From: a virus
Direction: 5' to 3' (one strand)
Virus record (IMG/VR): IMGVR_UViG_3300034377_000007
Location: 1-64,000 of that record
DNA: 64,000 nt
The stretch's first letter is position 1. Each line of letters starts with the position of its first letter. Shown piece by piece: positions 12,801 through 45,089 of this stretch. The position numbers and the translations under genes were made by a program. The notes under the pieces were generated by a model. That model was not told where the DNA came from and searched no databases. It worked only from the letters and a program-made list of their open reading frames with translations.

Positions 12801-15800
12801 AATCCTCTAAAGTGACCGTTGAGATATCTGGTCTAAATGGGTTTTCTAGGTTGGCAAATAATTTTAATACCCGCGCGCCCTCCTTCGACACATTTCTATC
12901 TGGATGATCTGTTGCATATTTAGAAGCATCCTTTTCACTGGTCGTCAGATAGACGGCGCGACCGTAAGAGGCTTCGGGGTCGGCCTTGGTCAAATCAAAC
13001 GCCTCTACCGCTCCCGTTGTTCCATGATAGAGCGTCACCGGGTTGCCACGTCTGTCCGTCAACTTTGTGTTGGGGTAAGCACGCTTGAACCGTGAGACTG
13101 CGTCTTCAATTTCCAGGCGGCCTGATGTCCCTGTTTGCCCTTCCGCCTCTTTTCCAGACATCAGTTCGGGCTGACGTTCGGACATGGGCGGCATTTTATC
13201 ACGACGCGCCATCTTGAGCGGCACGTCTCCCAGACCCAGAGACGCGCGCACGCTCGCCATCAAATCGGCCTCGTCAACAGCCAACAATTCAACGGCTTTA
13301 CGTTTGACGGAAATCCCGGAGCGCGGCTTCCTCGCCCTTTCAGGCAACAAGCCTTCGAGTTCTTTAAGACGATCTTCCCGGCGTTTCTCTTTATCACGAA
13401 GAGAGGCGAGGCGCTTCCTCAGAGTGTCAATCTCCGCCATCGTGAGAGCACCCTCTTCGGCCCATCCTATGAGTTTTCTTGACTGTTCTACTTCTGCGCG
13501 GGCTCCGCTCGCTTCCGCTCCCGCGACTGCCAGAACGGCAGAAGCGGATTCTAATTCTTCGCCCGCACGGTGAATTCGTGCAGCCTCTTTCTCCGATAGC
13601 TCTCTTCCTCTTTCACGCGCGACTCTGGCAGCCGTAGCCATCACGTCTTCTACGGAGTTATCTGCAATTTGGGCAGCCTGAATAGCCTGTCCTGCTTTGG
13701 TGAAGGCTGCGGCTAAAGTAGAGGCGAGGGCTTCCGCTCTGGCTCGTAGGGCGGAAGCTTCCTCGGCGTCTATCGTCGCAAACGCTTCGCTGAGCAACGC
13801 CCTTTGCATCATCTTGGACAATGCGATGTGCTCTGCTCCGAGCGCCTGGCCTGATTTTAGAAGGGATTCTGCGGCGTCAAAGCCTATTTGCTCAAGGAGA
13901 CGCTTACCGTCAAGAAGAGCGGCTTTGTTGGGATAGACTTCGTAGAGTTCGTCGGCGGCGCGAAGTCCCTGCGTGCGTAAGGTGGATGGAAGTGCGCGCG
14001 CTCTTACTTCCCGCGCTTCGCCTTCTGCTCCTGAAGGAACTTCTTTATCTCTTCCCTGCGTTCCGCCTCCGGGAGATTCTGCAACCCTTCTGCCAGCTTG
14101 ATCGCTTTCCCTAAGTGCCGACGATTCCCCGTCGGCTTGGGAGCTATTATAAGCCCTCTTCGCGTTTTCAATGGCTTGTCTGACATGGCTCTCCTGTCTC
14201 TTGAATTCACTGAAAGCATTAGGCCCGTTGCGCTCTATGAATGAACGCGTCCAGAGTTCGAGATAATTGGCGGCCTCTTCATCCGAGAGGCCGAGTTTAG
14301 CATAATCTCCCCCGGCTATCGTGGCCGCAGTCTCCTCAATAGCCAATCCACGAGAAGCATTCATGTACTCGCGGGTTGAGCTGTAGTAGTTTCGCCACGC
14401 GGAGACTGCCGGGTGCGATTCCAATTCTTCAATCTTCGTATGACGATCTTCGAGGACTCTTCCTTCCGCCCCGAGGTAGCTTCCGGCGTGGAACGATTCG
14501 TGTGGCTCCGCTGCTGCGGGAGCGTCTTTGAATTTAATAACCGCTGTGCCTTTTCCCTCTCGGGCGGCGTCAAGAAGATTCCCGGCAAGATCGTTTAAAG
14601 GTTTGACATCATCACTCGACCAACCCATCTCAGGGTCGCGCATGTCCCTGGCTGTTCCCTGCAAGGTCTTAACGATCATTCGCACCTGGGACGGCTCAAG
14701 GAATAGTCCGTCAAGGGTTGGAGCGTCTTCGAGGTCTTGAACTTTAGAGACCAGAGCGCGGCGTATGACTTCTCCACCTTCGGCGTTGACGGTGACGATG
14801 TTTTCTTCGCGTGCAGAAGAGGCTGACGGGATGAAGTCGGAGGCGTGTTCAATAGTGCGGAGGCGGCTTTGCTCAACGCTCGCCATCTTGAGAATGTTTG
14901 GGTCGGACAGCGAGAATGTGCCACGGTTGCCTGTGGCTGATTTGATCTGGTCAGGATGCAAGACCATCACACGGTCGCTATCAGCACTATAAACACCATC
15001 ATAGCCTTCGCTGATTAGCCTGCCCCTGATGGCGTCCTGCCATGTCTCGCCACTTTTTAGTGAGTAATTTCGGTATAGGTCTGCTTCTATGCGGTCAAGT
15101 GCCGTGGGCGTTATTGGTTTTTCAATCCTAACGAACACTGGCATGATAGTGCCATCGTTAGGCCGTCCAACCGCGCGAGCGTAATCGTTTCCAAGGGCAT
15201 ATTCTGCGGCCTTATCAGGATTCTTGGATAGGTATATGCCCTTACCCCAAGAGCCAGAATCAGTCTGCCCGAATTTAGATAAATCAAACTCAGTGAAATC
15301 AGCAAGCGTGCCGTGATAAACGACGAGCGGCCTGCCCTGCCCGTCAACTACCTTTGAGCCAGCAAACCACCGCTTAAATTCTGGGGTGTCCGTGATCTTC
15401 TTTATTGCTGCCTGTGCCATCTTGAGCGGGCCATCACCAAATAGACCGTTCAACTCGTTGGCAATTTCCTGTGTGCCAGGCTGTTCGATCAATCCACTTG
15501 GCAGCTTTCCTGTTCGATCAATCTCAGCAAGTAGTCTCTCTTGCTCAGAGGTCAAATCCTTTTCACCGACGAGCATCGGCTGGTTGACGTAATCGGAAAC
15601 AGGAGTGCTTGAGCGGTCAAGCTCCGCGAGCTTTGAGGGGGCGGGGAGGGTGTCGGCGAGCACCTCAGTATCAACGCGGTCAGCCGACTTGACGACCTGC
15701 GAAGCGAGGCGGCGTACGCGCGGTGGGACATCATCTTCCTGCAATCCCGCAAGGGTTGCGACGTTGTCCTTCCCCAGCGAGCGCTCTAGTTCCTTCTCTT

Positions 15801-18800
15801 TATAATAACGCTCGGCGTATTCTCTTTCCTCTCTGGTGGTGTTAGGTGGCGGCTCGAATCTCTCGACAGGGCGCGCGCCGCCTTCGGCAAACAAACCGCT
15901 CTCAGCTTCACGGAAGCCTAAGCCTCCCTGTTCGGGTTGGTAGTAGTCGGAGAGTTTACGGGATGATTGAGGCGCGCCGTTCTCGCCGAAGTCGAAGCTT
16001 GTATCCGCTTCCCCCTCCGGCTCCGTCTCGTCTATTACTTCTTCTGCAAATATTGCTGGTTCGCTTTGCGGAAGAAGAGCATCTGATGAGGCTTCATCCT
16101 GAGACGCGAGGCGAGCGAGCGCAATTTCTCTAAGCGAGCGGAGTGTGATGCCGATGAGTTCTTCGTCGAGTCCATAAGTTGCACCTATTGTAACAAGGTC
16201 ATCGTAGATTTGGGAAGATATTTCGCCCGTCCGTTCGATCTCCGCGAGCATCTCCGCAGCGTCTTTGTCCTGCATGAAACGCGCTTCACGCTCAAGCAGT
16301 TTTTCCTCTTCGGCTGAGACCTCGCCTAAAGCTGCTATCTCTTCAAAGATGGGGTTCTCTGTCGAGAGGTGGCTTGCTATGCCGCGCGCGTCGTTCTCTA
16401 CGGCTTCAAGGAATTTATCAGGGTCAACGTAGCCGTACTCAGCATCGGTCACGATGTCGGGGATGTCTCGTAGATACCCGGCATCATAAGCAGCCTGCGC
16501 CATCTGCTCGACGGTGAAGCGAGAATTTTTATTGACGAGGAATGGCTTGCCGAGTTCCTTCTGTGACAGACGTTTTAATTCTTCACCTTCGCCCTTGACG
16601 CCGCCAGATAATTGAACGAAGCGCCTGAGCGAATGCTTTTTAGGGTCGGGGGCTTGACGCTGGCGCGGCTTGCGGTTGGCAGCCTTATCAATCTTGGCCT
16701 GCCGTTTCCGCTCCGCTCTTGTTTGCCGGGAAGCGGTCAGAGGCTTCAAAGCTTGGGGTACTTCAATCGCAGGATGTGCTAAATCACTTTTCGCTGTGGG
16801 GGTAGATACGGGTTGCTGAGATTGCAAGGCCGTTCTCTTAGTTGCGAGTTCAGCTATTTCCTTGTCAACCAAAGCCAGCGTGGTTTTGTATCTGTTCGGG
16901 CGCGGAGATTGAAGCTGGCGCGCAAACATACTTTGCAGGTCTTTCTTTTGCCGCCCTAACTGCACTTGTCGGCTATCGAGCTTTGACAACTCGCGCTCGG
17001 CCACCTCTGTCTGAATCTGCGCCTCTGGCTTTAAAAGTTCCTTTAACTCTCGTTCAATAGCAAACACCCGTAACAGCGTGTTTTGCTGGTGACGTTTCTG
17101 CCGTTCAGAGGTGCGCGCCCACTGGTCAGGCAGCACTAAAGAGGGGTCAATGTAGTGTAGCCCTTGATATTCATGAATCAGTTCAGAGGCACGTTGACGC
17201 TTCTCCACCGGCAAAGCGTTGAACGCTTCTGGTCGTACCACCGTCTGACGTACTACGGCACTCTTATCAAGCGTTGGCTCTTTTATTGCAGTGGTGGGTG
17301 TAGTCTCCGCATTCTGCGACGCTTGCACCTGATCTTCTTCAGCCTGTGGAGCATTGGACTCCTTCGGGGCAATCCTGAGCCCCTGGCGTGTGCGGACGGG
17401 AACCATGATGCGGTTTCCCTCGCCTCGTCCGTTGGACTGTTGAACGATGTGCTCCGTGCCTTGATCGTCGGTTACTCGTACGCGATTCTGTCCTACTCCT
17501 GATTGATTGGAGCTTTCGGTGACGAGGCCAAAGTCAGCATGTCGCCATTGACGTGGGGGTTGAGTCTCAGAGGCGGCGGGTAGACTATCTGCGCTCCGTT
17601 CTCGTCCATCACCCACGCGAAGAGTATTCCCCTCGGCTGTTGGGCGTAGGAGTTCTGTCTGTCCAGCCTGCGGCCCATCTCCTCTTGGTGCGCCTGCACT
17701 AACTTGGAAATCTCTTCGCACTCCGCTTGCGCCATCCGAGCTACGAGCTTTGCCGCCTCTGCTATCTGTTCCTGCGTTAGACTCTGATAGGCCATTTTCC
17801 TCTACTCTCCTTTGTGCTGCTTCCTGCGCTGACAGTAATTCCTGATTCGCGGTCTGCGGGAATTGCCGCCGGTCAACTTCGGCCTGTGCAATAGCATCTG
17901 CCTCTGTTGGCACAATCGAAGTAGACAGTTCTCGCCCTTCCGCATCTTCTGTTCTGAGAGCTGGCCCAACACTTGTGTCTGTTACAGGTGCAACTTTTCC
18001 GATTAAAGGCTCGAAGCCGTTTTGAGCAACATAGTCCTGAATAGACTTGATACTTGTGAGCCCCATCGCCCGCGCTTTCGTCCTCTTGACGAGCAAGAGC
18101 CCATCGGGGACGGGAACGCGTATGAAGCCGGTCGTGCCGCCCGGTTCAGGTGAAGATTTCGGATAGAAGACGGCGACGCGGGGGGAGTTCTCGTCTCTAG
18201 CGCTTTCAAGCTGCGCTTCAATGGTCTGAGACGACTCGGGCACGGGCGCGGCGTCCGTCTCCGATGGCTGCGGCAGCAACGCCTCTTCCGCGCCGTTCAC
18301 CCGCGCCTCCGACGCTCCCTCCGTGCCTCTGGCCGCCGCCGGAGCGTCCCCTTCGGCGCTCTGCGTCCCTTTCCAGACGTAGACGGGTTGACCGTGGCGC
18401 ACGTCGCGCACGTAGCCTTCCGGTATCTCTATGGAATAGGTATCAATGATGCGTGCGTCTAAAGTAGCCCGGCGCTTGATTCCGGCCTGTATCGCTTTTA
18501 ACGCTTCGGGCTGAATCGCGGGACGGGCAGATTCGTCAACGGCGATTCGATCAAGCTTGACGAGGCGGACATTTCCATCGTCGCCGCGAACGCGGGAGAA
18601 TCCCTCGGGGGCTTCACCTTCCGCCCGTAACCTTTGCCCGTCTTCGGGCGTCAGTTCTTCGACCGTGCCGCCCCTGACCGTGCCCTGTGTATCGGTGAAG
18701 GTGACGGGCTGCGCAGGTTTCGGCTGCCGAACCGTTGAAGGTTGAGCATTCTCAGCCTGCCCTTCGACGCTGGTGGCGGGCGCTATCTGGTCAGGCAAGG

Positions 18801-20943
18801 CATCAGACGATAAACCCTCGTCCGCCGGTTCCGTGTTTGCCCGCGCCGCTTCGCTGGAACCTCTGTGAATACGCCCGCCGTGACTGCCCGTTGCTGCGCT
18901 GACGATGGCAGAGAAGAGGGCGCCGGTCGCGCCGCCCGCTCCCGCAGCCGAGTAGATGCCGTCCGTCCATTCGCGCGACTTGTCGTAACCGACGATCTTC
19001 CTGGCTATTACATTGCCCGCCGCCGTCTGGAAAAACTCCTGTACGCTCTCCTCGAAGGTCTCCTTGCCCATCTCGATGAGAGCTTTCTTGAGCGTGCCCC
19101 CGCTGATCCTATCCAGACGACGAAGCGCGGTGCCGACACCAGCCACCTCCGAGGCACCGACGCCGCCGTTTAAGAGAGCCGAGAGGGTCGCATCGTCCTC
19201 ATTTGCTCCATGCCGCTTGGCATCCCTGTAGCCTTCCGACATCCCCATCGTGACGCCGAGCAGGGCCGGGACGACGTATGCCGATTTACTGATGAGCCCG
19301 CCGGATGCGAACCCGACGGCAGAGCCGATGGCCTGCGGAATCGTGGAGGCGATAAACTCCTCCTGCCTTGCGGGGTCGGTCGGGTAATGACGCCGCGCAG
19401 CTTCGCGGATAGCCTGCGCCCATTGGGCCGTGACCAAATCCGCCGCCTGGCTGGCGTCCCTGTAGGATTGCAGACCTTCGGGCAAGTGCCTGTCTATGTT
19501 GTAGGCAGTGATGGCTATAGCATCAAGAACCCCTGCCGGCATCTCGGCCACACCGGACAGGAACTGCCCGAACGCGTGCGCGCTGGTCGAAATGGGCTCA
19601 CTACCCACTCGTGCCCTGATACGCGGAGCGGAAGCTCGCGCCCGTGTCTCCTCTTCCGACTCGATGCGCCCTTCCGGCGAGAGCGTGCCGCCCTGCTGGA
19701 TATGGGCGATCTGAGCTGGTTGGAGGCCGAGGCGGCGCAGGGCTTCGGGTCTGACCTCTCGAATCTCCCCGCCTGAACCTAAGCCCCGCTCGCGTAGACG
19801 CTCCCCGACGGGCGCAAGTCCCGGCCCCTGTCGGTTCATTTCCTGTTCGATGGCTGCACGACGCTGCATGTAAGCATCGTCCGAACGGCGCACGTCGGCG
19901 ATGCTCGGCCTCTCTCTTTGCAGGCGCTCATATTCAGCTTTCGCCGCTGCGTATTCCTGCGCCTGCTGGTCGGCAAAGGTTGGGGCGAGCAGGCCGCCGA
20001 ACTCGGGGTCAACCGGCCTCTCGGTCAACTTCCGCCGTGCACGCTCCATGCGTGTGCGCGCTCTCTCCACCTGTCGCCTGCGTGTGCGCTGTGCGGCTCT
20101 CTGCCCCCGTCTCTGCTGCATTAGTGAGACCGCCTGCTGGTTGACCTGATCTATGGCAAGCGGATGATCGCGCCATCTCGCCTGTTCGGCTAACAGCTCG
20201 GGACTTGCAGGGGAGAACTCGTCTCCTTCACGCTCAGCCGGGGGTATGCGAGGGGACTGCACAGCCCGGGTTTCAGGCTGTGCAGTTTGCGTAGCAGAGG
20301 CGGTCGGCGGGACGCTGTTTAGCCGGATGAGTTCTTCGGGAGTGATCTTGTAAGTCCTGGCTATCTGCTCTAACGTATCCCCTTCGTGGGCGATGATATG
20401 GATGACTCCTTCGCCTGCCCAGTTCGGAACGGCAACCTCTTCTCCGCTTTTGAAGATGCGCGTGGGGGCCTGCTGCGTAGCGAAGTCAATCTCGGGCCTC
20501 GGCGTGAGCGACTGTCCGATCAAAGTAGGGCTGTAAGTCGGCATCGCCGCGCCGAGGCCCGGCCCGCGCCCTCCCGGCGGGCCGACGTGGATATGAGGAG
20601 CGGTGGATTTGCCCGGAACGGCTTTATCCCAAACCGTGTGCGGTATGCCCTGCCCCTTCAGCCATTCGGCGATCCACCGTACCTGCTCGGGTGTTTCACC
20701 CTGATTGATGCCGATGTCGAATCGCCCCTCGTGGGGGATGCCCATGCGGCGGTGGGTCTCGTCGTTGCCGAAGGAAGAGACGCGGATGTCCTTGCCGAAG
20801 ACGGAGCGATAGGCTTGGTTGAGGCGGTCGCGCACGTCCGCGGGGTCGAATGAGAGGCCCGGGGTGCTGCGGGCAGGCTTCGCCACGTCCGAGAAATCAA
20901 TCTCTTCCGGCCTGGCTGCATCTGAGAAGTCGATAACAGACAT
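9871..20943 (-). CDS. Giant multidomain polyvalent-type protein (3690 aa), probably virion-packaged and injected
   Basis: It is an uninterrupted 11-kb ORF upstream of terS. The domains seen by eye are listed as separate features below. Confidence 0.9.
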   Translation of the reverse strand: MSVIDFSDAARPEEIDFSDVAKPARSTPGLSFDPADVRDRLNQAYRSVFGKDIRVSSFGNDETHRRMGIPHEGRFDIGINQGETPEQVRWIAEWLKGQGIPHTVWDKAVPGKSTAPHIHVGPPGGRGPGLGAAMPTYSPTLIGQSLTPRPEIDFATQQAPTRIFKSGEEVAVPNWAGEGVIHIIAHEGDTLEQIARTYKITPEELIRLNSVPPTASATQTAQPETRAVQSPRIPPAEREGDEFSPASPELLAEQARWRDHPLAIDQVNQQAVSLMQQRRGQRAAQRTRRRQVERARTRMERARRKLTERPVDPEFGGLLAPTFADQQAQEYAAAKAEYERLQRERPSIADVRRSDDAYMQRRAAIEQEMNRQGPGLAPVGERLRERGLGSGGEIREVRPEALRRLGLQPAQIAHIQQGGTLSPEGRIESEEETRARASAPRIRARVGSEPISTSAHAFGQFLSGVAEMPAGVLDAIAITAYNIDRHLPEGLQSYRDASQAADLVTAQWAQAIREAARRHYPTDPARQEEFIASTIPQAIGSAVGFASGGLISKSAYVVPALLGVTMGMSEGYRDAKRHGANEDDATLSALLNGGVGASEVAGVGTALRRLDRISGGTLKKALIEMGKETFEESVQEFFQTAAGNVIARKIVGYDKSREWTDGIYSAAGAGGATGALFSAIVSAATGSHGGRIHRGSSEAARANTEPADEGLSSDALPDQIAPATSVEGQAENAQPSTVRQPKPAQPVTFTDTQGTVRGGTVEELTPEDGQRLRAEGEAPEGFSRVRGDDGNVRLVKLDRIAVDESARPAIQPEALKAIQAGIKRRATLDARIIDTYSIEIPEGYVRDVRHGQPVYVWKGTQSAEGDAPAAARGTEGASEARVNGAEEALLPQPSETDAAPVPESSQTIEAQLESARDENSPRVAVFYPKSSPEPGGTTGFIRVPVPDGLLLVKRTKARAMGLTSIKSIQDYVAQNGFEPLIGKVAPVTDTSVGPALRTEDAEGRELSTSIVPTEADAIAQAEVDRRQFPQTANQELLSAQEAAQRRVEENGLSESNAGTDSRGGKARSSDGASGVRRDFQVSAGAPRGDGPQAGQTELLRPTAEGNTLRVGDGRERSADSLPAASETQPPRQWRHADFGLVTESSNQSGVGQNRVRVTDDQGTEHIVQQSNGRGEGNRIMVPVRTRQGLRIAPKESNAPQAEEDQVQASQNAETTPTTAIKEPTLDKSAVVRQTVVRPEAFNALPVEKRQRASELIHEYQGLHYIDPSLVLPDQWARTSERQKRHQQNTLLRVFAIERELKELLKPEAQIQTEVAERELSKLDSRQVQLGRQKKDLQSMFARQLQSPRPNRYKTTLALVDKEIAELATKRTALQSQQPVSTPTAKSDLAHPAIEVPQALKPLTASRQTRAERKRQAKIDKAANRKPRQRQAPDPKKHSLRRFVQLSGGVKGEGEELKRLSQKELGKPFLVNKNSRFTVEQMAQAAYDAGYLRDIPDIVTDAEYGYVDPDKFLEAVENDARGIASHLSTENPIFEEIAALGEVSAEEEKLLEREARFMQDKDAAEMLAEIERTGEISSQIYDDLVTIGATYGLDEELIGITLRSLREIALARLASQDEASSDALLPQSEPAIFAEEVIDETEPEGEADTSFDFGENGAPQSSRKLSDYYQPEQGGLGFREAESGLFAEGGARPVERFEPPPNTTREEREYAERYYKEKELERSLGKDNVATLAGLQEDDVPPRVRRLASQVVKSADRVDTEVLADTLPAPSKLAELDRSSTPVSDYVNQPMLVGEKDLTSEQERLLAEIDRTGKLPSGLIEQPGTQEIANELNGLFGDGPLKMAQAAIKKITDTPEFKRWFAGSKVVDGQGRPLVVYHGTLADFTEFDLSKFGQTDSGSWGKGIYLSKNPDKAAEYALGNDYARAVGRPNDGTIMPVFVRIEKPITPTALDRIEADLYRNYSLKSGETWQDAIRGRLISEGYDGVYSADSDRVMVLHPDQIKSATGNRGTFSLSDPNILKMASVEQSRLRTIEHASDFIPSASSAREENIVTVNAEGGEVIRRALVSKVQDLEDAPTLDGLFLEPSQVRMIVKTLQGTARDMRDPEMGWSSDDVKPLNDLAGNLLDAAREGKGTAVIKFKDAPAAAEPHESFHAGSYLGAEGRVLEDRHTKIEELESHPAVSAWRNYYSSTREYMNASRGLAIEETAATIAGGDYAKLGLSDEEAANYLELWTRSFIERNGPNAFSEFKRQESHVRQAIENAKRAYNSSQADGESSALRESDQAGRRVAESPGGGTQGRDKEVPSGAEGEAREVRARALPSTLRTQGLRAADELYEVYPNKAALLDGKRLLEQIGFDAAESLLKSGQALGAEHIALSKMMQRALLSEAFATIDAEEASALRARAEALASTLAAAFTKAGQAIQAAQIADNSVEDVMATAARVARERGRELSEKEAARIHRAGEELESASAVLAVAGAEASGARAEVEQSRKLIGWAEEGALTMAEIDTLRKRLASLRDKEKRREDRLKELEGLLPERARKPRSGISVKRKAVELLAVDEADLMASVRASLGLGDVPLKMARRDKMPPMSERQPELMSGKEAEGQTGTSGRLEIEDAVSRFKRAYPNTKLTDRRGNPVTLYHGTTGAVEAFDLTKADPEASYGRAVYLTTSEKDASKYATDHPDRNVSKEGARVLKLFANLENPFRPDISTVTLEDLKRAVGSDSYLLSNIERNLGHIEADTSKPLSGQAVEYAVRAGFKPWRGAAELQKVLRNLGYDGVIYNPTKELGKHLKERGSHVVVFDPTNVVFAEGSKPSDAPTSAAQSNSSHLLKMAQVEESVRPLDEDTIDNLAKLGALKLLRAERGRLSVSAWKRVMLSDFGRGISSDLDRIHAKSVKLARQTIRQARHDRAIRRISERPGNEELSRDELEDIYREEREERKRLAAVQAEHEKAAREFEKGPKPGRIAGLRAKLGPKYGPRLSDATGKKEGPRLGEDLKRRPGPLLSEGVKSGPPKPTALDRAIARNALTHIDAIAATKLSRGLSPGHLVSEMMADHGLTATEARTAFMSGGEVLERARAEVTASREMAAALKKHVASTETERDQALASLQEARRARQEAGRRVARELDALKKSPAQRIVGTAWRASKGIPISLMASGEVSNLLRQGGVPSVMQPQLFPAFVKATTSSIRDAGFARNIDVIEQDPDFPLMQRMGIDFSFAGGNKGEEFFEDADVLQRIPIIKQTLGTFVRKSDQVFGGGLDHLRHALGKLWIDELRAKGVGYKDNPRAYKDVGRFINIVTGRADIGDHNTAATKAYLALGRMIGFAPRYRVSRLQFLTLPLNPSFWHAPPEARRIVYKNTARWWGTMAATFGALATLGWITNEALISLFDPDDDDWMKFKYGKIRIDLSAGNATHARTVLRLMMEAYRGLTGQVTGQMAFDKVIGEGADSIMGRWLHSGADPRASLMIEAATGETFDRRPFTWFGDYGIDGAIGTRLTPITYQNFFQTGRKEGFAYGAAQAGAEAVGLSANVYPDRADEPKTRAEKLAMRFVYKGERATSKKPDQETLRKLDELKTRSRRGEDVSREVIPLVASGVINENRGETIIKARSQTYLQEKFRLLSLEDARHVYSLATPAEQLSLKPILEQKEARQEEKDRKALDAAANPERAEIKRARAAKIQDRKRRRQELRANQ
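10790..10866 (-). other. Hydrophobic (TM-like) segment near the C-terminus of the giant protein
   Basis: The segment is WWGTMAATFGALATLGWITNEALISLF. Confidence 0.4.
12449..13218 (-). other. ART-like module 2 of the giant protein
   Basis: RRGNPVTLYHGT...YGRAVYLT...ASKYA...GYDGVIYN...HVVVFDP is a paralogous copy of module 1. Confidence 0.55.
14488..14502 (-). other. HEXXH (HESFH) zincin-type metal-binding motif in the giant protein
   Basis: PHESFHAG lies between the two ART-like modules. Confidence 0.5.
14882..15426 (-). other. ART-like module 1 of the giant protein
   Basis: FKRWFAGSKVVDGQGRPLVVYHGT...WGKGIYLS...AAEYA...GYDGVY...QIKSATGNRGTF resembles the ADP-ribosyltransferase-like domain of phage polyvalent proteins, as I remember it. 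Confidence 0.6.
20308..20403 (-). other. LysM-like peptidoglycan-binding motif of the giant protein
   Basis: HEGDTLEQIARTYKITPEELIRLNSV matches the LysM core (GDTL..IA..Y.....L...N). Confidence 0.65.
20581..20781 (-). other. LAS-type zinc peptidase-like segment of the giant protein
   Basis: The pattern IPHEGRFDIGI ... APHIHVG fits the H-x(n)-D ... H-x-H metal-ligand pattern of LAS / M15-type cell-wall peptidases. Confidence 0.5.
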
Positions 20944-28675: not shown

Positions 28676-29398
28676 TTACGCCTGCTTTCTGTCAAGTACG
28701 GTGAAGGGTTTGGTTAACTGCGAGCCGTAGCCATGCTCGCTGAGTTTTCGGGTAAGCACATTGCAGAGTCCGACCATCTGGCGAACAACGACCGGGTTTT
28801 TCCAGTCGGTTAATTCGGTTTCGATGATGCGCTTTGAAGTGTGGAAATATCCGGTCTGGCTTTGCCCGCCAAGCCCTTTATGAACCTCGTTCTGTTCTTC
28901 CGTGAGCGTCTGGCCGTGCATGTGCATATCGGCCTGTTTGAGTGTTATAGGCTTAGCGAGAAACTGCGCGGTGAAGGAACTAACCGGCTTATCTTTTAAC
29001 CTCTGAACGGGGAGTCTCAAGGCTACGGCAATCTTCGCCTCTTCTATTCCGAGCTGAGATGCGCGCTGGCGTATCTGCTTGACCTGGTAGGATGAGTAGC
29101 GCACGCCATGCTCGGCATTAGCAGCGACGGCTTCAAGAAAAAATTCCTGATCACTGCCCATGTCAACCAGCACGGCGCTGATCTTCTTACGCCCGGCTTT
29201 TCGATGCGCGCGGGCGCGGTGTTCACCGTCAACGATTGTCATCGTCTTCCGGTCAACTTTGATCGGAGGGAATTTACTGCCCCCGAGAAGTGCCTGCGTG
29301 TAGTTCTCCACCGCCACCATGTCAACGGCGTGGCGTGGATAGAGATATGAATTCGCCTTCAGATCGTTTAATTCAAGGACTACAGCCTCTTCCGTCAT
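28676..29398 (-). CDS. ParB/Srx-fold nuclease-domain protein (240 aa)
   Basis: TIVDGEHRARAHRKAGRKKISAVLV matches the ParB N-terminal-domain motif (DG.HR..A). I chose the start at MTEEAVV, which has an AGGAGG RBS. The upstream part of the track ORF is Cys/Arg-rich and probably non-coding. Confidence 0.65.
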   Translation of the reverse strand: MTEEAVVLELNDLKANSYLYPRHAVDMVAVENYTQALLGGSKFPPIKVDRKTMTIVDGEHRARAHRKAGRKKISAVLVDMGSDQEFFLEAVAANAEHGVRYSSYQVKQIRQRASQLGIEEAKIAVALRLPVQRLKDKPVSSFTAQFLAKPITLKQADMHMHGQTLTEEQNEVHKGLGGQSQTGYFHTSKRIIETELTDWKNPVVVRQMVGLCNVLTRKLSEHGYGSQLTKPFTVLDRKQA

Positions 29399-29451
29399 AT
29401 CAAACCTCCTGCCCAAACAACACAAAAGCCCGCACCGTTTGGGCGCTATGT

Positions 29452-29566
29452 TGCACAAATCTTGCGACGGACTTGTGGACACAGACGCCCGCAACGATGC
29501 AGGCTTTTCTATTAAGATTTGTGCAGACCTTCTCCGAAAACAAGAAAGCCCACAAGTCCGTCGCAA
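29452..29566. repeat. Two interlocked perfect inverted repeats upstream of the ParB-nuclease-like gene
   Basis: A is TGCACAAATCTT (29452-29463) and A' is AAGATTTGTGCA (29514-29525). B is TTGCGACGGACTTGTGG (29462-29478) and B' is CCACAAGTCCGTCGCAA (29550-29566). The order is A-B...A'...B'. Confidence 0.7.
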
Positions 29567-29602
29567 TTCCAATCACAGCACAAAACACTTTCTCGTGGCT
29601 GA

Positions 29603-34645: not shown

Positions 34646-34855
34646 TCAGCGAGACGCGGGTTTTTGAATGTTGGCTATAAGCTTAGTCCGCTGAAGAAAG
34701 TTGTTAATGTGGTAAACAAACGGCGCGCATCCTTTGCGCCTCGCCATGACCCAGTTATCAATAACGCCCATGACTTTTATTTTGCCTAGACTGTCCTCGA
34801 AGACTGCGCCGGGAACAACGGTTGGTTTTCGTGCTTCAATTTCCGGGTCTGGCAT
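34646..34855 (-). CDS. Hypothetical protein (69 aa)
   Basis: It is the first ORF downstream of the cro-like gene. Confidence 0.5.
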   Translation of the reverse strand: MPDPEIEARKPTVVPGAVFEDSLGKIKVMGVIDNWVMARRKGCAPFVYHINNFLQRTKLIANIQKPASR

Positions 34856-34937
34856 GATTATCCTTTTTAAATCAGTTAGGGCGCACTCCCCCGGCTGACC
34901 TTTGATTTCGGATATGGGGGAGAATGAAGAATGATGT

Positions 34938-35207
34938 TCACGCTGCTAGTCGCTTTTCCTCTTCGGGGTCAGCCAGAGGTCTTCCAACGGCTGAGACAGG
35001 CACGCCCAAGTAATCCGCAAATCTCTTCCTGATTTGTGGGTAAACAAATGGGGCGCGGCGATTCACTACACGACTGATTTTTGTTGGCGTGGCCCTCTCG
35101 GCTTTCCACTTGCGCGCCAACTTCACAAAATTGTCGCCGTTGAGGATGACCGCCGCCTTGATTTCCTCCGGCGTAAGAACCTTGCCGTTCAGTGGTGAAA
35201 GTGGCAT
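34938..35207 (-). CDS. Cro-like small DNA-binding protein (89 aa)
   Basis: The start is at MPLSPLNG, with an AGGAG RBS. It is divergent from the XRE repressor across a 64-bp region carrying a palindrome. The longer track ORF is an over-extension. Confidence 0.55.
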   Translation of the reverse strand: MPLSPLNGKVLTPEEIKAAVILNGDNFVKLARKWKAERATPTKISRVVNRRAPFVYPQIRKRFADYLGVPVSAVGRPLADPEEEKRLAA

Positions 35208-35254
35208 AGTTGCTCCTTTGTCTAGCCTGCTTTTGCAGGTGTAATATAAGGATA

Positions 35255-35271
35255 ACTTAACTAGGTTAAGT
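35255..35271. promoter_or_regulatory. Operator-like 7-3-7 palindrome in the switch region
   Basis: ACTTAAC-TAG-GTTAAGT is perfectly symmetric and abuts the repressor ATG. Confidence 0.6.
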
Positions 35272-35850
35272 ATGTCAAGAGAAAAGTCTGCCCCACCGAA
35301 GGGAGAGGTAAAACACCGTGGCCCGAAGTCTGAGCATCCCGAGCCAAAAGTAGGATCATTACCTTGGAAGATTAGACAGAAGAGAAGGAAAGACGGGCTT
35401 AGTACTGGCGACTTAGGTAAAAAGATAGGCGTCTCAGGCGTATCTATATCCAAGATTGAAACCGGGCGAACCCATATTAGCGAGTCCACTATGTGGACTG
35501 TTATAAAAATCGTTCAAGCGTTGAATACTGATTTTAATGAGCCTGTGGTGCGTGAGCACTTACAAGAATGGATACCCCGCTTAGACGATGTATGGCGGAT
35601 AGTGGAATATGGGCCGCACGACTTCGGAAAGCCAGAACAAGACACCGCAGAATACCCGCCAATGCCGCCGCAAACGCGCAGCCGATCAATGCACGCTGGC
35701 CTGGTGGGGACGGGTGGGACTAAAGGCGAGCCCGTAAACATCAACGAAGAGGAAATGAAAGATTTTCATGCCGTTATTCAACACGCCCGCACAGACCAAA
35801 AAAGGCGTGGCGTTTCTGCGAAAGTCAGTAAGAAAAGAGGCGGGAAATGA
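35272..35850 (+). CDS. XRE-family repressor (CI/ImmR-like, no S24 peptidase domain)
   Basis: The HTH_3 pattern is IRQKRRKDGLSTGDLGKKIGVSGVSISKIETGRTHIS. It is followed by an ImmA-type protease gene. Confidence 0.8.
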   Translation: MSREKSAPPKGEVKHRGPKSEHPEPKVGSLPWKIRQKRRKDGLSTGDLGKKIGVSGVSISKIETGRTHISESTMWTVIKIVQALNTDFNEPVVREHLQEWIPRLDDVWRIVEYGPHDFGKPEQDTAEYPPMPPQTRSRSMHAGLVGTGGTKGEPVNINEEEMKDFHAVIQHARTDQKRRGVSAKVSKKRGGK

Positions 35851-36293
35851 TCTGCATGGCTAAAAGATTCCGGCAAATAAGAAGGGGCTGGAATAAGAGG
35901 CCGTTAACAGAGAAAGACTTTTGGGCGTTGTGCAAGCAGTATGGAATTGATATTGTTGAGGACGACACTAAGCACATGAAATGGCCAGGCATCTATACGG
36001 TGATTGACGATGTGCCAACTATTATCTTAAAGGCCAACCTGAAGGGCTTAGAGCGCCTGTGGGCAATGTTCCACGAATTAGGCCATCATCTTTTGCATAC
36101 ACCCGAAACTTGCTTTTTCTCTGATAGCACAGTCCATAAGGTACAATCGGAAGCCAACGCTTTCGCCGCCATTGCGTTGATTCCTGAAAAGGTAGTAAGA
36201 CAAACGCCTCTATGGGAACTTTATGATGTGGATGAGTTCGCAGTTAAGCTATTTCAAATCAGATTAGAGGTGTATGAACAGTACAAAATGTAA
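35847..36293 (+). CDS. ImmA/IrrE-family metalloprotease (anti-repressor)
   Basis: It has an HEXXH motif (FHELGHHLLH), is about 150 aa, and overlaps the XRE stop by 4 nt. Confidence 0.75.
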   Translation: MICMAKRFRQIRRGWNKRPLTEKDFWALCKQYGIDIVEDDTKHMKWPGIYTVIDDVPTIILKANLKGLERLWAMFHELGHHLLHTPETCFFSDSTVHKVQSEANAFAAIALIPEKVVRQTPLWELYDVDEFAVKLFQIRLEVYEQYKM

Positions 36294-36318
36294 TCTTAAC
36301 GAAGGGAGGGCATGACAA

Positions 36319-36756
36319 GTGGTTAGGCCAGGCTGCTTGTGGTGTGACAGAGAATTAACAGAGGAAGAGTTCAAGCTTAGCAATCTATGCGATGAATGCG
36401 AGAAGGTTTCTGAGGGGATTCCAGGGATGTCCAAAGAGCAACTTGATACCCTGCCCTTTGGGGTCGTCCACTTAGACCGGGACGGCAAAGTCCTAGCGTT
36501 CAACCACGCAGAGAAGAGATTATCAGGTTTGCCGGAGCGAGAATACATCGGTCGCAATTTTTTCACCGAGATCGCGCCGTGCTCAGACGTTCAGGACTTT
36601 AAAGGAAGGTTCACCGAGTTCCTAAACGGAAACCATCTTTCCGAGCGCTTCGATTTCGCCTACCGATTCAGGGCGTATACCGTAGACGTTCAGATTACTT
36701 TTCTGCGGGTTAATCAGCAGATGGCCTTTGTGTTGAGTAGGCGGGTTCAAAGGTAA
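36319..36756 (+). CDS. Zinc-ribbon plus photoactive-yellow-protein (PYP)-like PAS protein
   Basis: It has a GTG start with a GGGAGGG RBS. The N-terminus is CLWC-x15-CDEC. The rest aligns with PYP: QLDTLPFGVVHLDRDGKVLAFNHAE...IGRNFFTEIAPCSD...FKGRF. Confidence 0.8.
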   Translation: MVRPGCLWCDRELTEEEFKLSNLCDECEKVSEGIPGMSKEQLDTLPFGVVHLDRDGKVLAFNHAEKRLSGLPEREYIGRNFFTEIAPCSDVQDFKGRFTEFLNGNHLSERFDFAYRFRAYTVDVQITFLRVNQQMAFVLSRRVQR

Positions 36757-36813
36757 AGCGTTTGAGATTCGTAAGACGTAAGGGAGTCCCATACTGATAG
36801 AAAGGCCGCACCA

Positions 36814-37620
36814 ATGCCACTCAAAGATTTACTCAAGCAATCCCCGGAAACCTTTCCAATTTCCGACGAAGATGAATTGAGCGTCAACTTGTGGACAAAT
36901 GAGTTCATCTTTGAAGTCAGGTACGCACCAAACGCCCGCATCTTAGACCATCGCGGGAAATGGGCGGAACTTATCTCAAATCACATGGGATTCAAGCACT
37001 GGCAGATAATTGAAAACCGCATTGATGTCTTTTCGGAAGACCAGAAATCACGCGCCTTTGTGGGACACGACCGCGCTGGATACGTTCTTATTGACAGTCC
37101 TGGCAAAAGGTATTTTCAAGGGCAGACTGAGAAGCTTCTAAGGTATCTATTTAGATTAACCGAGTTTGGGGGTAGATTGAAAACAGAGCGCATTGGCGTG
37201 CGTTGCCGATTTGGGGTTAGATACGATGGGACATTTGATGAGCTATGCGAAAGAACGGCATCCCAATACATTTCAATCCCACAATCGACGCGCGCTGCCT
37301 TTGGCGAAAGCGCCCGCTTGAAAGACATAGGTATAGCGCTAAATTATGCCGATGAAATGGGCCGCTTTAATACTAATTGCGGCCCCATGACAAAAGCCGA
37401 GCTGGCGCAATTCTTTCAAAGGGACACAGAGAACCCGCCCCCCGAGGTGGGCTTCTACTTCGACATTGATTATTTCGTCAGACCCAAAGTCGAAATGATG
37501 GGAATTGAAATTATTCATAAAGTAATGAGGTTCTCAGATCAAAGCGTTAAGCGTTTTCAGTCGGTGCTTGAAATTTTAAATGGGGATACCCTTGATCGAA
37601 AGGCCCCTATTGAGCGATAG
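36814..37620 (+). CDS. Hypothetical 268-aa protein (possibly TIGR04255-like)
   Basis: It is a complete ORF in A/T-richer DNA in the immunity operon. The N-terminal FEVRYAPNARILDHRGKWAELI is reminiscent of that family, from memory only. Confidence 0.6.
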   Translation: MPLKDLLKQSPETFPISDEDELSVNLWTNEFIFEVRYAPNARILDHRGKWAELISNHMGFKHWQIIENRIDVFSEDQKSRAFVGHDRAGYVLIDSPGKRYFQGQTEKLLRYLFRLTEFGGRLKTERIGVRCRFGVRYDGTFDELCERTASQYISIPQSTRAAFGESARLKDIGIALNYADEMGRFNTNCGPMTKAELAQFFQRDTENPPPEVGFYFDIDYFVRPKVEMMGIEIIHKVMRFSDQSVKRFQSVLEILNGDTLDRKAPIER

Positions 37621-37668
37621 GGGCATGAGGGTTGAAAGTGCATAGGGAAAGTCTATGGTGACTAGAGT

Positions 37669-38205
37669 ATGGGCTCATCCTCGCGCAGAAAAAGAACGGC
37701 TCAAGCCTCAAGGCTGGTAGCAGAGCAGAAAGCGCCGCCTCTCAGGGTTGCTGTAATCCGTCCTGAACAACCATCCGACTCCACGGAGTTTCCTGGCTCA
37801 CGAGACATCCCTTCTGCGGCGCAATTCCTCAGGAGCGAGGACGCGACCACAGCGCCACCCATAACAAAAGACCCTGAGAAGATTGAAGCTCAAGGGCAAA
37901 GCCTCACGAGTGCCACACCCGCCGGTGCGCTCGTAAACTTTTTACAGGGTAATATCAAACCGGCAGCCTTTTCGCTAATCATACTTGTAGCTACAAGCTG
38001 GTTTGTATTTTGCATATGGATTCTTAAAAATGACAGTGATGCCGGGCGACTTGTTGATCGGGAAGGTTATAAACTGTATTCGTATAAAGTGCTGGCGGCG
38101 TCAGTTCTATTTTTGGTACTCATTGTACTGATTATTATTGTCTACATCGTTTTTACTGTGTTTGAAATTGTCCAGCAGAAACTCTTCCCACAAGACCCTA
38201 GTTAA
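37669..38205 (+). CDS. Membrane protein with disordered N-terminus and two C-terminal TM helices
   Basis: The TM helices are AAFSLIILVATSWFVFCIWIL and VLAASVLFLVLIVLIIIVYIVFTVF. Confidence 0.6.
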   Translation: MGSSSRRKRTAQASRLVAEQKAPPLRVAVIRPEQPSDSTEFPGSRDIPSAAQFLRSEDATTAPPITKDPEKIEAQGQSLTSATPAGALVNFLQGNIKPAAFSLIILVATSWFVFCIWILKNDSDAGRLVDREGYKLYSYKVLAASVLFLVLIVLIIIVYIVFTVFEIVQQKLFPQDPS

Positions 38206-38494
38206 AGCACCACTTCAGCCGGGTGATGAATTTCTTGAATTGCTCTATGGCTTCCTTATTGCCAGTTATGCTGACTATGTAATAAGAATTAAGCAGGCTC
38301 TTGTGTTCGGTTATCTCATATGAAATCCCTGCTAGGTCGCAGAAACAGCGTACCCTGCTTGTCACAAAGCGCCGAAACAAGCAAAACAATGAAAAGGCAA
38401 ATCTAACTTTTACCTGTTCTGACATTCCTACCAACCCATAAAACCGTTATCTCGTCTTCTGAAACCTTTGCCTGTCTTGTACCATCTGTAATAC

Positions 38495-38545
38495 ACAGCC
38501 TGTTCCAAGCATGAAACAGACCGTTTTGCAGGCTGTTTTTGTTTC
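38495..38545 (+). terminator. Terminator-like hairpin ending the immunity operon
   Basis: An 8-bp stem ACAGCCTG/CAGGCTGT with a 26-nt loop is followed by TTTTTGTTT. Confidence 0.5.
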
Positions 38546-38640
38546 AGGCGTGAAACAACCACAGCCCGCCTAACTCCCATATACCCAAGCCGCTTTAAGG
38601 CATTGCAAATTTCCTTCCCCCATCTTATCAAAAATATTGC

Positions 38641-38669
38641 TTGCAAACCTAACTAAGTTAAGTTATACT
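38641..38669 (+). promoter_or_regulatory. Near-consensus sigma70 early promoter with the operator filling the spacer
   Basis: The promoter is TTGCAA-17 nt-TATACT. The spacer (38647-38663) is ACCTAAC-TAA-GTTAAGT, which differs at 2 of 17 positions from the 35255 palindrome. An A/T-rich tract lies upstream. Confidence 0.7.
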
Positions 38670-38793
38670 GCTTTTGCACTTGCAACGAAGGGACAGCAAG
38701 AGGCCGATAGATTTAAAGATTTTTTCACTTTTCAGCTTATTGATTCTTACAGAGAGAACGATACCGGAAACAGTTTCTCAGGAGCGACCAAAG

Positions 38794-39105
38794 ATGCTGA
38801 CAACCACGACACTCCCCGGCATTCACTTTCAAGATCGCAACGCCATGACAGACCAGAGGGCAGTGGACTTCAAGCTCGATACAGGAGGGCGTGAGGGCTT
38901 CGAGGTTCGTCTTGATGGTGACTACCCGGCTACTCCGAAGTACACCATTGAAAAAAAGGTTGAAGTCGAATCCTATCTCGTCGGATGGGATGGCCGCAGG
39001 CGCTACCGGTTTGTTAAGTGGTATCGCGTGCTTGTTGACGGCAAGGCGGTCGCCTATGGACTGAAGAGGGCGAGTGCTTACAAGTTGGCGAAGGAGCTGG
39101 CGTGA
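38794..39105 (+). CDS. Early-operon hypothetical protein (103 aa)
   Basis: The ATG has an AGGAG RBS. The longer track ORF starts inside the 5' UTR. Confidence 0.55.
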   Translation: MLTTTTLPGIHFQDRNAMTDQRAVDFKLDTGGREGFEVRLDGDYPATPKYTIEKKVEVESYLVGWDGRRRYRFVKWYRVLVDGKAVAYGLKRASAYKLAKELA

Positions 39106-39171
39106 GGGAGATTACGCTTTCTCAAGACAAGGTTGCTCGTCTCAACTTTCCGCAGGAGGCCAGATAGCGAC

Positions 39172-39436
39172 GATGGTTGAAGCCCCTAATACACACCCTT
39201 TTGAAATCTACGTCGGCAGCCTAGCAGCGATGGAGATGGTTGCATTTCGCGGCGTAAAAGGTCTGAATCCTGACACGCACAGATGGCAAGTCGTCTCTAA
39301 GACCGCAACCTACCAAGTTATCAAGGATTTTGAGGTAGCAGATGAAGAAACGGACGAAAAATTTTGGTGCGCTTCCCTGTTCTGCGATCAAGACTTGCGC
39401 ACTATAGCTAATGGGAAAAGTCTAATCATCCCATGA
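39172..39436 (+). CDS. Early-operon hypothetical protein (87 aa)
   Basis: The ATG is preceded by GGAGG. Confidence 0.5.
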
Positions 39437-43333: not shown

Positions 43334-44344
43334 TTACTTGCCGTGCTTGCACTTCCTCACTCCGCCGTCAGGGCCATTGGGATATTCCCAGCCCGAGCCT
43401 GCACACGCAGGACAGCTTTTAGCGGCCTCTGTGGGCTCTACAATCGCCTGATCGGGGAGTTCCCTGCCTTCCTCTCGGGCCTGGCGTTTATCTATCTTCC
43501 AGAGCCTTCTGCGGAGGTGTTCTGCAAGGAAAGCGGGCACACTTGATATGGTTGTTCGTGCTGCAGCAATCCTCAGTTCCGCGATAAGAACCTCGGCCAG
43601 TTCTTTCCACCGCTCCGCCTCGCCTGGGGAGAGTTCTTTACCTGTCAGTTCCCTGACGGCCTCTTTGAAGGCGCGGTTCATTTGGGCGAGCGCAGCGTCA
43701 TCATCAACTTCGTTGTCTTTAAGAGATGTATTTAATTGTCCGGTAATTTTTGACCCCAGTACCGCAGTATTTTCTGCCGCAGTACTCCGGTACTCCGGTA
43801 CTCCGGTATTACCGGAGTGGGATAGTATCCGATACTCGTCGCCGAGAGGGCTGTTGATGGAGGAGAGCCGTTCAATCCGGCCTTTAAGCTCAAGGCCGCG
43901 CAGGGCTGCCCTGACGGTCTTGTCCGACTTGTAGCCCGTGCGTTCCATCAATACGGAGACACGGACTCGAATGTCGCTGCGGTTGAATCCGACTGTGAAT
44001 CTTAGAAGATGCTCTAAAACCTTACTCTCAGCCGGTGAGAGGGTGCGATCAAGGCGGTCGGCATATTCATTGGCTTTCCTGTAGTAACGCTCGGTCGGCA
44101 CAACATCACTGCGATACTGCGGTACTTCAGTACTCCGGTAATCCGGTACTCGTTCATTGCTATCAATAGTTTGCGCCTGCTCCGGTACTCCGGTACTGCG
44201 GTAATCACCGGGAGTGAGCGCGCGGGGTTTGACCTTGGCTAAAAGGGAAGAAGTAGCGGTCGCGTCCGGGCTCTCGATGGCGTCACTTATTCCGCGCCCC
44301 AGCGCTCTCCCTTTCGATCTTTTCACGTCGCTCATAGAGGTCAA
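43334..44344 (-). CDS. ParB-like partition or centromere-binding protein with wHTH and C-terminal zinc ribbon
   Basis: The N-terminal KRSKGRALGRGISDAIE resembles the ParB LG(R/K)GL peptide that stimulates ParA. The wHTH-like segment is VLEHLLRF...TVRAALRGLELKGRIERL. It lies downstream of parA. Confidence 0.6.
   Translation of the reverse strand: MTSMSDVKRSKGRALGRGISDAIESPDATATSSLLAKVKPRALTPGDYRSTGVPEQAQTIDSNERVPDYRSTEVPQYRSDVVPTERYYRKANEYADRLDRTLSPAESKVLEHLLRFTVGFNRSDIRVRVSVLMERTGYKSDKTVRAALRGLELKGRIERLSSINSPLGDEYRILSHSGNTGVPEYRSTAAENTAVLGSKITGQLNTSLKDNEVDDDAALAQMNRAFKEAVRELTGKELSPGEAERWKELAEVLIAELRIAAARTTISSVPAFLAEHLRRRLWKIDKRQAREEGRELPDQAIVEPTEAAKSCPACAGSGWEYPNGPDGGVRKCKHGK
43759..44210. 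repeat. Three clusters of 8-bp GTACTCCG-type tandem repeats inside the ParB-like gene
   Basis: GTACTCCG occurs three times perfectly at 43782-43805. Degenerate runs lie at 44111-44152 and 44180-44210. They encode the (D/E)YRST(G/E)VPE peptide repeats. Confidence 0.7.
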
Positions 44345-45089
44345 TCAACTCCTTTGCCAGCTTGGTAAAGTCGAAATAGCCGGAACTCGTCTTGTCGTAT
44401 TCAAAGATGGATTTCCCATGCGCCGCCGCCTCGGCCAGTTTGACGTTTTTATGAATGATCGTCCCCAGCATCAGGGTCTCGAAAAAGCCCTCTACTTCGG
44501 CCTGCGCTTCGCGGTCTATCTTCTGGCGCTGGTCGTAGTGATTAAGCAGGGCGCGGATGACAAGGCCGTGACGGTCGAAGTCCTGCTGCACCGATGCGAG
44601 CGTTTCCATGAGCTGGGTAAGGCCGTAGAGCGCGTAGTAGCCGGAGTCCAGGACGACGATCACTTCATCTGCGGCCACCATCGCGTTGATCGTCGCGGTC
44701 TCAAGCGCTGGCGGGGTATCAATGAAAACGTAGTCGTAGCGCCCCTGGAACGCCCGCAATCGCATCTCCAGGAGTCTTTCACGATTGCGCTTGGCCGCTA
44801 ACTGCTGTTCCATCGCAGGCTCTAAAGTGTTTGGGATGAGGTCGAGGCCGGGGCGGGCAGAGATAACGTAATCGAGCGGGTCAGGAGCGTCATTGAGTAA
44901 TAGCCGGAAGGAGCTGTTTTGAATCTTGCGCGGGTCGAGCCCGAGCCCTACGGACAGGTTGCCCTGTGGGTCAAGGTCTACCGCAAGCACTCTTTTCCTG
45001 AAATGGGAAGCGAAGGCGGCAGAGAGATTGAGCGCCACAGTGGTTTTACCTGTTCCGCCTTTCGCATTAGCGAGGACGATAATCTTCAT
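44283..45089 (-). CDS. parA: ParA/Soj-family partition ATPase
   Basis: The deviant Walker A is MKIIVLANAKGGTGKTTVALNL and the Walker B is YVFIDTPP. Confidence 0.85.
   Translation of the reverse strand: MKIIVLANAKGGTGKTTVALNLSAAFASHFRKRVLAVDLDPQGNLSVGLGLDPRKIQNSSFRLLLNDAPDPLDYVISARPGLDLIPNTLEPAMEQQLAAKRNRERLLEMRLRAFQGRYDYVFIDTPPALETATINAMVAADEVIVVLDSGYYALYGLTQLMETLASVQQDFDRHGLVIRALLNHYDQRQKIDREAQAEVEGFFETLMLGTIIHKNVKLAEAAAHGKSIFEYDKTSSGYFDFTKLAKELIDLYERREKIERESAGARNK

Follow-up and report, generated by a model that had tools for sequence, protein, structure and literature searches.

What is the role of two adjacent genes, here called A and B, that follow the repressor in the immunity region of a temperate phage? 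The genes lie in a window of 64,000 nucleotides, which comprises positions 1 to 64,000 of the IMG/VR virus record IMGVR_UViG_3300034377_000007. An earlier reading of the letters, hereafter the sequence-only reading, had suspected a prophage-encoded exclusion or abortive-infection pair. Its coordinates and lengths for both open reading frames (ORFs) were correct. Gene A (36814..37620, + strand) encodes a soluble protein of 268 aa, the proposed sensor or enzyme component, and gene B (37669..38205, + strand) a membrane protein of 178 aa, the proposed effector. B starts 48 nt 3' of A in the same reading frame, with three stop codons between the two. We found that A and B are a genuine, strongly conserved gene pair. 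They probably have an anti-phage role, because the tight pair recurs in many lineages, often beside known anti-phage genes. More fully, we propose that the two genes are an anti-phage module that is complete in itself and moves horizontally, that B is its membrane effector, and that the prophage has it as cargo at the 3' end of the repressor operon; we judge the chances for and against this proposal to be evenly balanced.

Co-occurrence of the two genes elsewhere had been set beforehand as the test on which the sequence-only reading could fail. A set of 100 further loci came from three sources: contigs looked up for homologues, one representative genome per species (13 loci) and JGI metagenomes (80 loci). 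In almost all of them a B homologue was detected directly 3' of A on the same strand, using a local hidden Markov model (HMM) of B. Of the 91 loci in which the contig left room for a partner, 88 had B or a B-like protein immediately 3' of A, and the median gap was 3 nt. The hundreds of homologues of A, together with the B homologues directly downstream, place the coding status of both genes beyond chance.

Four loci had a sequence-divergent partner at the same position (L019 6729-7229, L020 1367-1744, L076 929-1432 and L089 1532-2041). Three of these partners (L020, L076, L089) had two C-terminal transmembrane (TM) helices, and those of L076 and L089 retained the basic N-terminus and a T-x-AP motif. 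The partner in L019, from Oscillospiraceae, was a coiled-coil protein with one C-terminal TM helix. The divergent partners suggest either effector swapping or fast divergence.

All neighbours were clustered over 76 non-redundant locus groups, and no third conserved gene was found. The sequence-only reading had placed a repressor, a protease and a photoactive yellow protein (PYP)-like gene upstream of A on the same strand, and these are present as matches to XRE, M78 and PYP. It had further proposed to check whether the pair recurs next to repressors in related prophages. None of the 100 other A-B loci contained relatives of the XRE, M78 or PYP genes of the window; therefore, the pair is autonomous and its link to these three genes is unique to this phage. 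They are the context of A-B and stand outside the conserved module.

The pair is distributed widely and patchily, over about ten bacterial phyla and one Asgard archaeon. Its hosts include Anaerolineales, Omnitrophota, Aminicenantes, Planctomycetes, Nitrospirae, Acidobacteria (Bryobacteraceae), Cytophagia, Pseudomonadota, Oscillospiraceae and a Promethearchaeota (Asgard) metagenome-assembled genome. The A family derives almost wholly from uncultured lineages.

Many of these loci have defence genes nearby. The assignments are PADLOC matches unless BLAST is named, and a part of the neighbours was scanned. L002 had RT_UG21 (2e-101) and HmaB/PglX-like methylases, and L011 had RT_UG9_small (3e-142) with RTasPolA (1.6e-125), a type 9 defence-associated reverse transcriptase (DRT9). 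In L012 a type I hsdS gene (3e-68) ended 16 nt before the ORF call of A and 6 nt before the tblastn match. The neighbours in L070 were hsdM/hsdS (BLAST), in L009 a type III restriction endonuclease, and in L013 a SIR2-TPR protein and a methylase. PDC-S02 (6e-142) and PDC-S31 lay directly upstream of the pair in L018, where the ORF call abuts PDC-S31. Serine recombinases or resolvases were present in six locus groups and integrases in three. The L019 locus looks phage-derived, with an endolysin-like domain and matches to phrog_18218 (7e-24) and phrog_12787 (1e-107).

Defence-type genes were present within ~6 kb in at least 12 of the 28 non-redundant groups that had 8 kb or more of flanking sequence, a count from a partial scan without a matched background. 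Recombinase or phage marks were seen in eight groups, two of which also had defence-type genes, so that 18 of the 28 had either kind. These neighbourhoods fit the exclusion or abortive-infection role that had been suspected from the letters.

One particular neighbourhood recurred. A HKD(PLD)-Snf2 helicase with a type IIG restriction-modification (RM) or methylase gene adjoined A-B in four independent groups: L004 (9245-14060), L010 (45-5984), L046 (2-5937) and L039 (1684-7100), the last two identified by BLAST. The four helicases were 25-49% identical to each other, and lay 5' of A-B in two groups and 3' in two. In L010 the pair began 17 nt after the type IIG RM gene. This association may be more than co-residence in the same islands.

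The soluble character of A, as proposed earlier, agreed with its hydropathy, which reached a maximum of 0.53 over 19 aa, a profile without a hydrophobic segment. A word-indexed search yielded 29 close homologues. An exhaustive profile search of 1.84 billion representatives extended the family to 722 clusters at 50% identity (E ≤ 1e-3), 194 of which reached E ≤ 1e-30. Nearly all of the 150 matches listed were about 225-255 aa long, typically ~235 aa; the few shorter members among them were apparently truncated. No named protein appeared among the relatives of A in homologue searches and cluster look-ups. Neither A nor B had a significant match in Pfam, NCBIfam, PADLOC v2 or PHROGs, and the A profile returned nothing at E ≤ 10 from all Protein Data Bank (PDB) sequences.

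AlphaFold2 (AF2) produced a confident, globular model of A, with a predicted local distance difference test score (pLDDT) of 90.1 and a predicted template modelling score of 0.84. The predicted fold consists of two tandem beta-alpha-beta4-alpha units and resembles the TATA-binding protein (TBP). Foldseek matches in the PDB were TBP, RepD-type initiators and AdoMetDC, at probabilities of 0.97-0.99, with template modelling scores of only ~0.3 and identities of 7-9%. These proteins share with the model the duplicated beta-alpha-beta4-alpha units, which form one curved antiparallel sheet backed by helices. In BFVD, the best match was an unnamed viral protein (target-normalised template modelling score 0.59), followed by giant-virus TBP/VETF-like proteins. 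The resemblance of the A model to TBP is one of fold class only, and justifies no functional inference.

In an alignment of 172 sequences, the family-conserved charged residues of A alternated along strands (E34/R36, R126/G128/R130 and D217/D219); D171 and D45/R47/G48 were also conserved. Such a pattern would suggest a patch on one side of the sheet that binds a ligand or is catalytic. The alternating charged residues also prompted a comparison with the CYTH, or triphosphate-tunnel, fold. This candidate was dropped, because no such structure was among the Foldseek matches.

The sequence-only reading had loosely likened A to the TIGR04255 family. This NCBIfam family is uncharacterised, and its members are similar to A in length (~260 aa), in being single-domain soluble proteins and in their sporadic distribution. 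The window A itself did not match TIGR04255.1 at E ≤ 10 and was not above the curated cut-off. Matches came from one of the 29 close relatives (E 0.02) and two of 39 distant relatives (best 4e-8). The latter two point to a common ancestry of the A family and TIGR04255. A profile search with distant A members, aimed at named TIGR04255 proteins, returned unnamed proteins only. Judged from these matches, A is best described as a remote relative of TIGR04255 and not as a member, and the earlier comparison with this family probably holds at the level of remote homology.

B had been described as a protein with a disordered N-terminus and two C-terminal TM helices, and hydropathy, composition and an AF2 model were in accord with this. 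Residues 1-95 (37669..37953, + strand) form a basic N-terminus (MGSSSRRKR) followed by a disordered tail, as judged by composition, alignment and AF2. This part is 67% disorder-promoting and rich in A/S/P/R/T/Q, with a net charge of +5 in residues 1-25. An amphipathic helix is located immediately N-terminal to TM1. Residues 96-173 (37954..38187, + strand) form a predicted hairpin of two TM helices, based on hydropathy, AF2 and loop conservation. The two strong hydrophobic segments span residues ~96-121 and 135-173. In the AF2 model, built from two sequences only, the helices cover residues 98-125 and 131-172 (pLDDT 74-82), and the N-terminal part has a pLDDT of ~50.

Short conserved motifs occur in the disordered tail of B. 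The alignment of 17 B proteins revealed a basic N-terminus and the motifs P-x-I-x-P-(N/D)-A-T, DSTNAP-x-IGEE and Y-A-x-S-x3-L-x-D-K, followed at the C-terminus by TM1, the loop QDN-x-aG-x-L, W-x3-K and TM2. The loop between the helices has the conserved motif (Q/K)(D/N)(D/N)xxG(R/x)L, present in the window B as KNDSDAGRL, and its tail reads DATTAPP where most homologues have DSTNAP. By these two variants, the window B is a divergent family member. Its only close database homologue was P0031, with 71% identity. Matches of B to TRP and PIG-P were weak and were rejected as noise from TM composition.

In the window, A and B close a run of five genes on one strand, in the order XRE-M78-PYP-A-B, with successive gaps of -4, 25, 57 and 48 nt. 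A terminator scan gave no convincing terminator between them. The first gene encodes an XRE-type helix-turn-helix (HTH) repressor (35272-35850, + strand; HTH_3 3.9e-8). It is followed by a M78/ImmA-IrrE-type metalloprotease (35847-36293, + strand; M78 3e-12, PHROG metalloprotease 1e-16) and by a PYP-like PAS protein (36319-36756, + strand), which matched TIGR02373 at 1.2e-27, below the cut-off of that model, and had as its best PDB sequence match the Ppr PYP domain (1mzu) at 1e-21.

A pattern search detected an operator-like 17-bp palindrome, ACTTAACTAGGTTAAGT, at 35255..35271 (no strand assigned), abutting the start codon of the repressor. A second copy with two mismatches is located at 38647..38663 (likewise without strand). 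The two sites are the only ones in 64 kb, with 0.04 expected by chance. The first copy overlaps a leftward promoter-like site, TTGACA-18-TATCCT (35278->35249). The second copy lies in the spacer of a rightward sigma-70-like promoter, TTGCAA-17-TATACT, detected at 38641-38669 by a promoter scan; this is in line with the early promoter that the sequence-only reading had placed after a hairpin. The five genes are thus bracketed by operator-like sites, since the palindrome copies overlap outward promoters at both ends. The two palindromes are probably the operators of the repressor and bracket the immunity region. From this layout, the repressor would bind at both palindromes, and A-B would be co-transcribed with it.

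The GC content of the A-B pair was 0.472 and that of the window 0.542; just 2.6% of windows of the same size reached a value this low. The greater A/T-richness noted for this stretch is therefore real, modest and operon-wide, as the whole repressor operon had a similarly low GC content of 0.476. Its low GC is a hint that this region was acquired as cargo.

The arrangement of the five genes recalls lambda, in which cI-rexA-rexB is bracketed by OL/PL and OR/PR. The earlier parallel to lambda holds for the layout, which is operator-bracketed and co-oriented, and fails for homology to RexA and RexB. As in lambda, a cytoplasmic protein of ~270 aa is followed by a small inner-membrane protein, 3' of the repressor and between operators and outward early promoters. 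The expected logic would be similar too, with a sensor that activates a membrane-damaging effector. In a RexAB-type pair of the Pseudomonas putida prophage P1, the membrane partner is reported to damage the membrane when the soluble partner stimulates it (PMC12894663).

Sequence similarity to the Rex proteins was absent, in that A and B had no Pfam or PADLOC match at E ≤ 1. Pfam includes RexA and RexB families, and the lambda RexA structure was presumably among the PDB sequences searched with the A profile. RexA is reported to be a two-domain dimer with a RdgC-like fold (PMC11077077). In contrast, the A model forms one TBP-like pseudo-dimer, and RexA and RdgC were both absent from the top 50 Foldseek matches in the PDB. 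RexB crosses the membrane with four TM helices; B has two, preceded by a disordered tail of 95 residues. Furthermore, the A family is mostly chromosomal and not phage-borne. Because there is no sequence match, A is not RdgC-like and B has two TM helices, the pair is Rex-like in position and logic and not a Rex homologue.

Small 2TM effectors also exist in variants of CBASS, Pycsar and retrons. A-B is like these systems in having a small helical-hairpin membrane protein beside a cytoplasmic component in defence islands, and membrane disruption would be expected of both. It differs in that the module has no cyclase, reverse transcriptase or other signal-producing enzyme, and that B has no PADLOC match. 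We know of no long conserved disordered tail, such as that of B, in the 2TM effectors of CBASS, Pycsar or retrons. Our literature search yielded nothing relevant on TIGR04255, on TBP-like anti-phage proteins or on HKD-Snf2 systems with TM partners.

We propose a mechanism by analogy with sensor-plus-small-TM-effector systems such as RexAB. As cargo at the end of the immunity operon, A-B would be expressed by lysogens, with translational coupling keeping the A:B ratio fixed. A would act as a cytoplasmic sensor, or as an enzyme that binds a small ligand or nucleic acid, through the conserved Arg/Asp/Glu face on one side of its TBP-like beta-sheet. In the resting state, A would hold or control B through the conserved cytoplasmic tail of B. 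Infection by another phage would change the state of A, and the B hairpin would then oligomerise in the inner membrane. The oligomers would collapse membrane integrity or potential, and the infection would be aborted. In its most specific form, the proposal describes a widespread and previously undescribed two-gene anti-phage system, made of a TBP-like sensor or enzyme distantly related to TIGR04255 and a two-TM effector with docking motifs in its disordered tail. This system would range from Omnitrophota to Asgard archaea, and the phage would have captured it as a non-homologous analogue of rexAB. We would put this form, too, at even chances.

Several points weigh against an anti-phage module. 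The anti-phage function of A-B is one that we infer, and the weak fold match of A (template modelling score ~0.3) assigns it no function. The scan with defence-system HMMs that had been proposed for both proteins gave no match to any model of PADLOC v2.0.0 at E ≤ 1. The fraction of groups with defence neighbours, at least ~43%, was obtained without a matched control, and classic defence-island screens reportedly used a cut-off of ~65%, above the value seen here. Several long loci were without a defence gene, such as L001 (Usp) and L007 (serA, TetR), and L008, L015, L016 and L017 had no PADLOC match in the partial scan. Prophage carriage is itself the exception: no relatives were found by a scan of IMG/VR or by tblastn of A in INPHARED phages and PLSDB plasmids. 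That the repressor promoter also drives A-B is an assumption based on the layout, and a promoter of their own could hide in the 57-nt gap before A.

One rival reading is a non-defence accessory module, for instance a membrane-linked stress or signalling pair that hitch-hikes in variable regions, with the defence neighbours reflecting insertion hot spots. In its favour are the missing match to any defence model, the loci without defence genes and the uncontrolled neighbourhood counts. However, the pair adjoins very different defence systems in independent lineages (L010, L012, L018), its phyletic pattern is sporadic, and it has been taken up into the immunity region of a phage; we regard hitch-hiking as unlikely. 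Superinfection exclusion (Sie) at the envelope would make different use of the same membrane protein. Small prophage membrane Sie proteins block the entry of incoming phage genomes, and an inner-membrane B might do likewise, with A as its cytoplasmic chaperone or regulator. Such a role suits a pair in the immunity operon of a temperate phage, and it suits B as a small membrane protein whose extracytoplasmic loop motif is conserved. It also suits the L019 pair, which adjoins a phage lysis cassette, a common site of accessory cargo genes (morons). Most members of the A family, however, are outside phages, in chromosomal islands beside RM and DRT genes, where Sie proteins are not typical. A conserved cytoplasmic partner of 235 aa with an enzyme-like charged patch would also be unexpected for a simple Sie protein, and envelope exclusion seems to us an unlikely explanation.

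The tight, translationally coupled arrangement, with its median gap of 3 nt, would also be expected of a toxin-antitoxin (TA) or addiction module. Its toxin would be B, acting by damage to the membrane, its protein antitoxin would be A, and the pair would not be dedicated to acting against phages. Such a module would stabilise mobile elements, here possibly a plasmid-prophage. The serine recombinases or resolvases near the pair in six groups, and the integrases, are in line with this, as are the ParA-like and ParB_N genes in the window genome, which appears circular. Yet A is far larger and better conserved than typical antitoxins, and the order of a large soluble protein before a small TM protein, together with the long conserved tail of B, suits a regulated effector better. 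Some loci are also plainly chromosomal, without mobile-element marks. We find pure addiction quite unlikely, although TA and abortive-infection roles are not mutually exclusive. A-B could instead be part of the lysis-lysogeny sensing circuit of the phage; together with the PYP-like sensor and the ImmA-type protease, it might for example pass a light or membrane signal on to repressor cleavage. The location on one strand with the XRE, M78 and PYP-like genes, in what may be one operon, would agree with this, but the lack of relatives of these genes in all 100 other A-B loci makes it very improbable. The main proposal and these four rivals leave a small share of the probability unassigned.

If the reading of A-B as an anti-phage module is true, the pair would be a new, sequence-unrelated example of the sensor-plus-small-membrane-effector design, with more than 700 clusters at 50% identity. 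It would give the first functional handle on the orphan TIGR04255 superfamily, and would mean that unrelated modules have come convergently to occupy the rexAB slot of temperate phages. A-B is absent from PADLOC v2 and would be a non-homologous analogue of the sensor-plus-membrane-effector pairs of prophages and defence islands. The features of note are the strict pairing, the breadth up to Asgard archaea, the connection with an orphan NCBIfam superfamily and the putatively convergent rexAB slot. The surprise is smaller than it would once have been, as candidate defence systems have become common. The tail motifs of B and the charged beta-sheet face predicted for A are direct targets for mutagenesis.

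The remainder of the window is that of a phage genome. It encodes the large terminase subunit TerL (6905-9289; phrog_38, 5.8e-59), an O-like replication protein and a polyvalent protein of 3690 aa (9871-20943, minus strand) with ART-PolyVal (1.3e-41), DUF3990 and LysM domains, which is probably an injected multi-effector protein. ParB_N and ParA/CbiA-like genes are present at 28676-29572 and 44283-45089, both on the minus strand. An ENA contig of 68,184 bp with the same protein as the window begins at window position 27200, and is thus circularly permuted relative to it. The record from which the window is taken is thus a permuted version of equal length, which points to a circular assembly. 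No integrase was found among the window proteins scanned, and the phage may be kept as a plasmid-prophage. Scans of IMG/VR with the M78 and PYP-like proteins, seeking sister phages in which the A-B slot might vary, found none.

Several minor features surround the operon. The terminator-like hairpin that had been noted downstream of B exists as a stable hairpin (38494..38552, + strand; -22.9 kcal/mol, z -3.17), ~290 nt 3' of B. It was not among the + strand terminators called by the scan, and it is not a canonical intrinsic terminator, because its U-run belongs to the stem; it may still be the end of the operon. An Rfam scan of 34800-39200 returned nothing. A minus-strand ORF of 75-78 aa (38198-38425/38434) converges on B and overlaps its stop codon; the gene caller of ENA calls it as a gene, and it had no PDB or PHROGs match. 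A HicA-like identity was considered for the minus-strand ORFs at 38198-38434 and 38428-38646 and rejected, as neither PDB nor PHROGs supported it. Divergent from the repressor, and 3' of the leftward promoter and operator, lies a minus-strand ORF of 89 aa (34938-35207), which had no PHROGs match and is a Cro/Ner-like candidate by position. Finally, the PYP-like protein (36319-36756) keeps the context of the chromophore cysteine, FFTEIAPCS, and has an additional CxxC...CxxC segment at its N-terminus. Through this gene, light or redox state could conceivably influence prophage induction.

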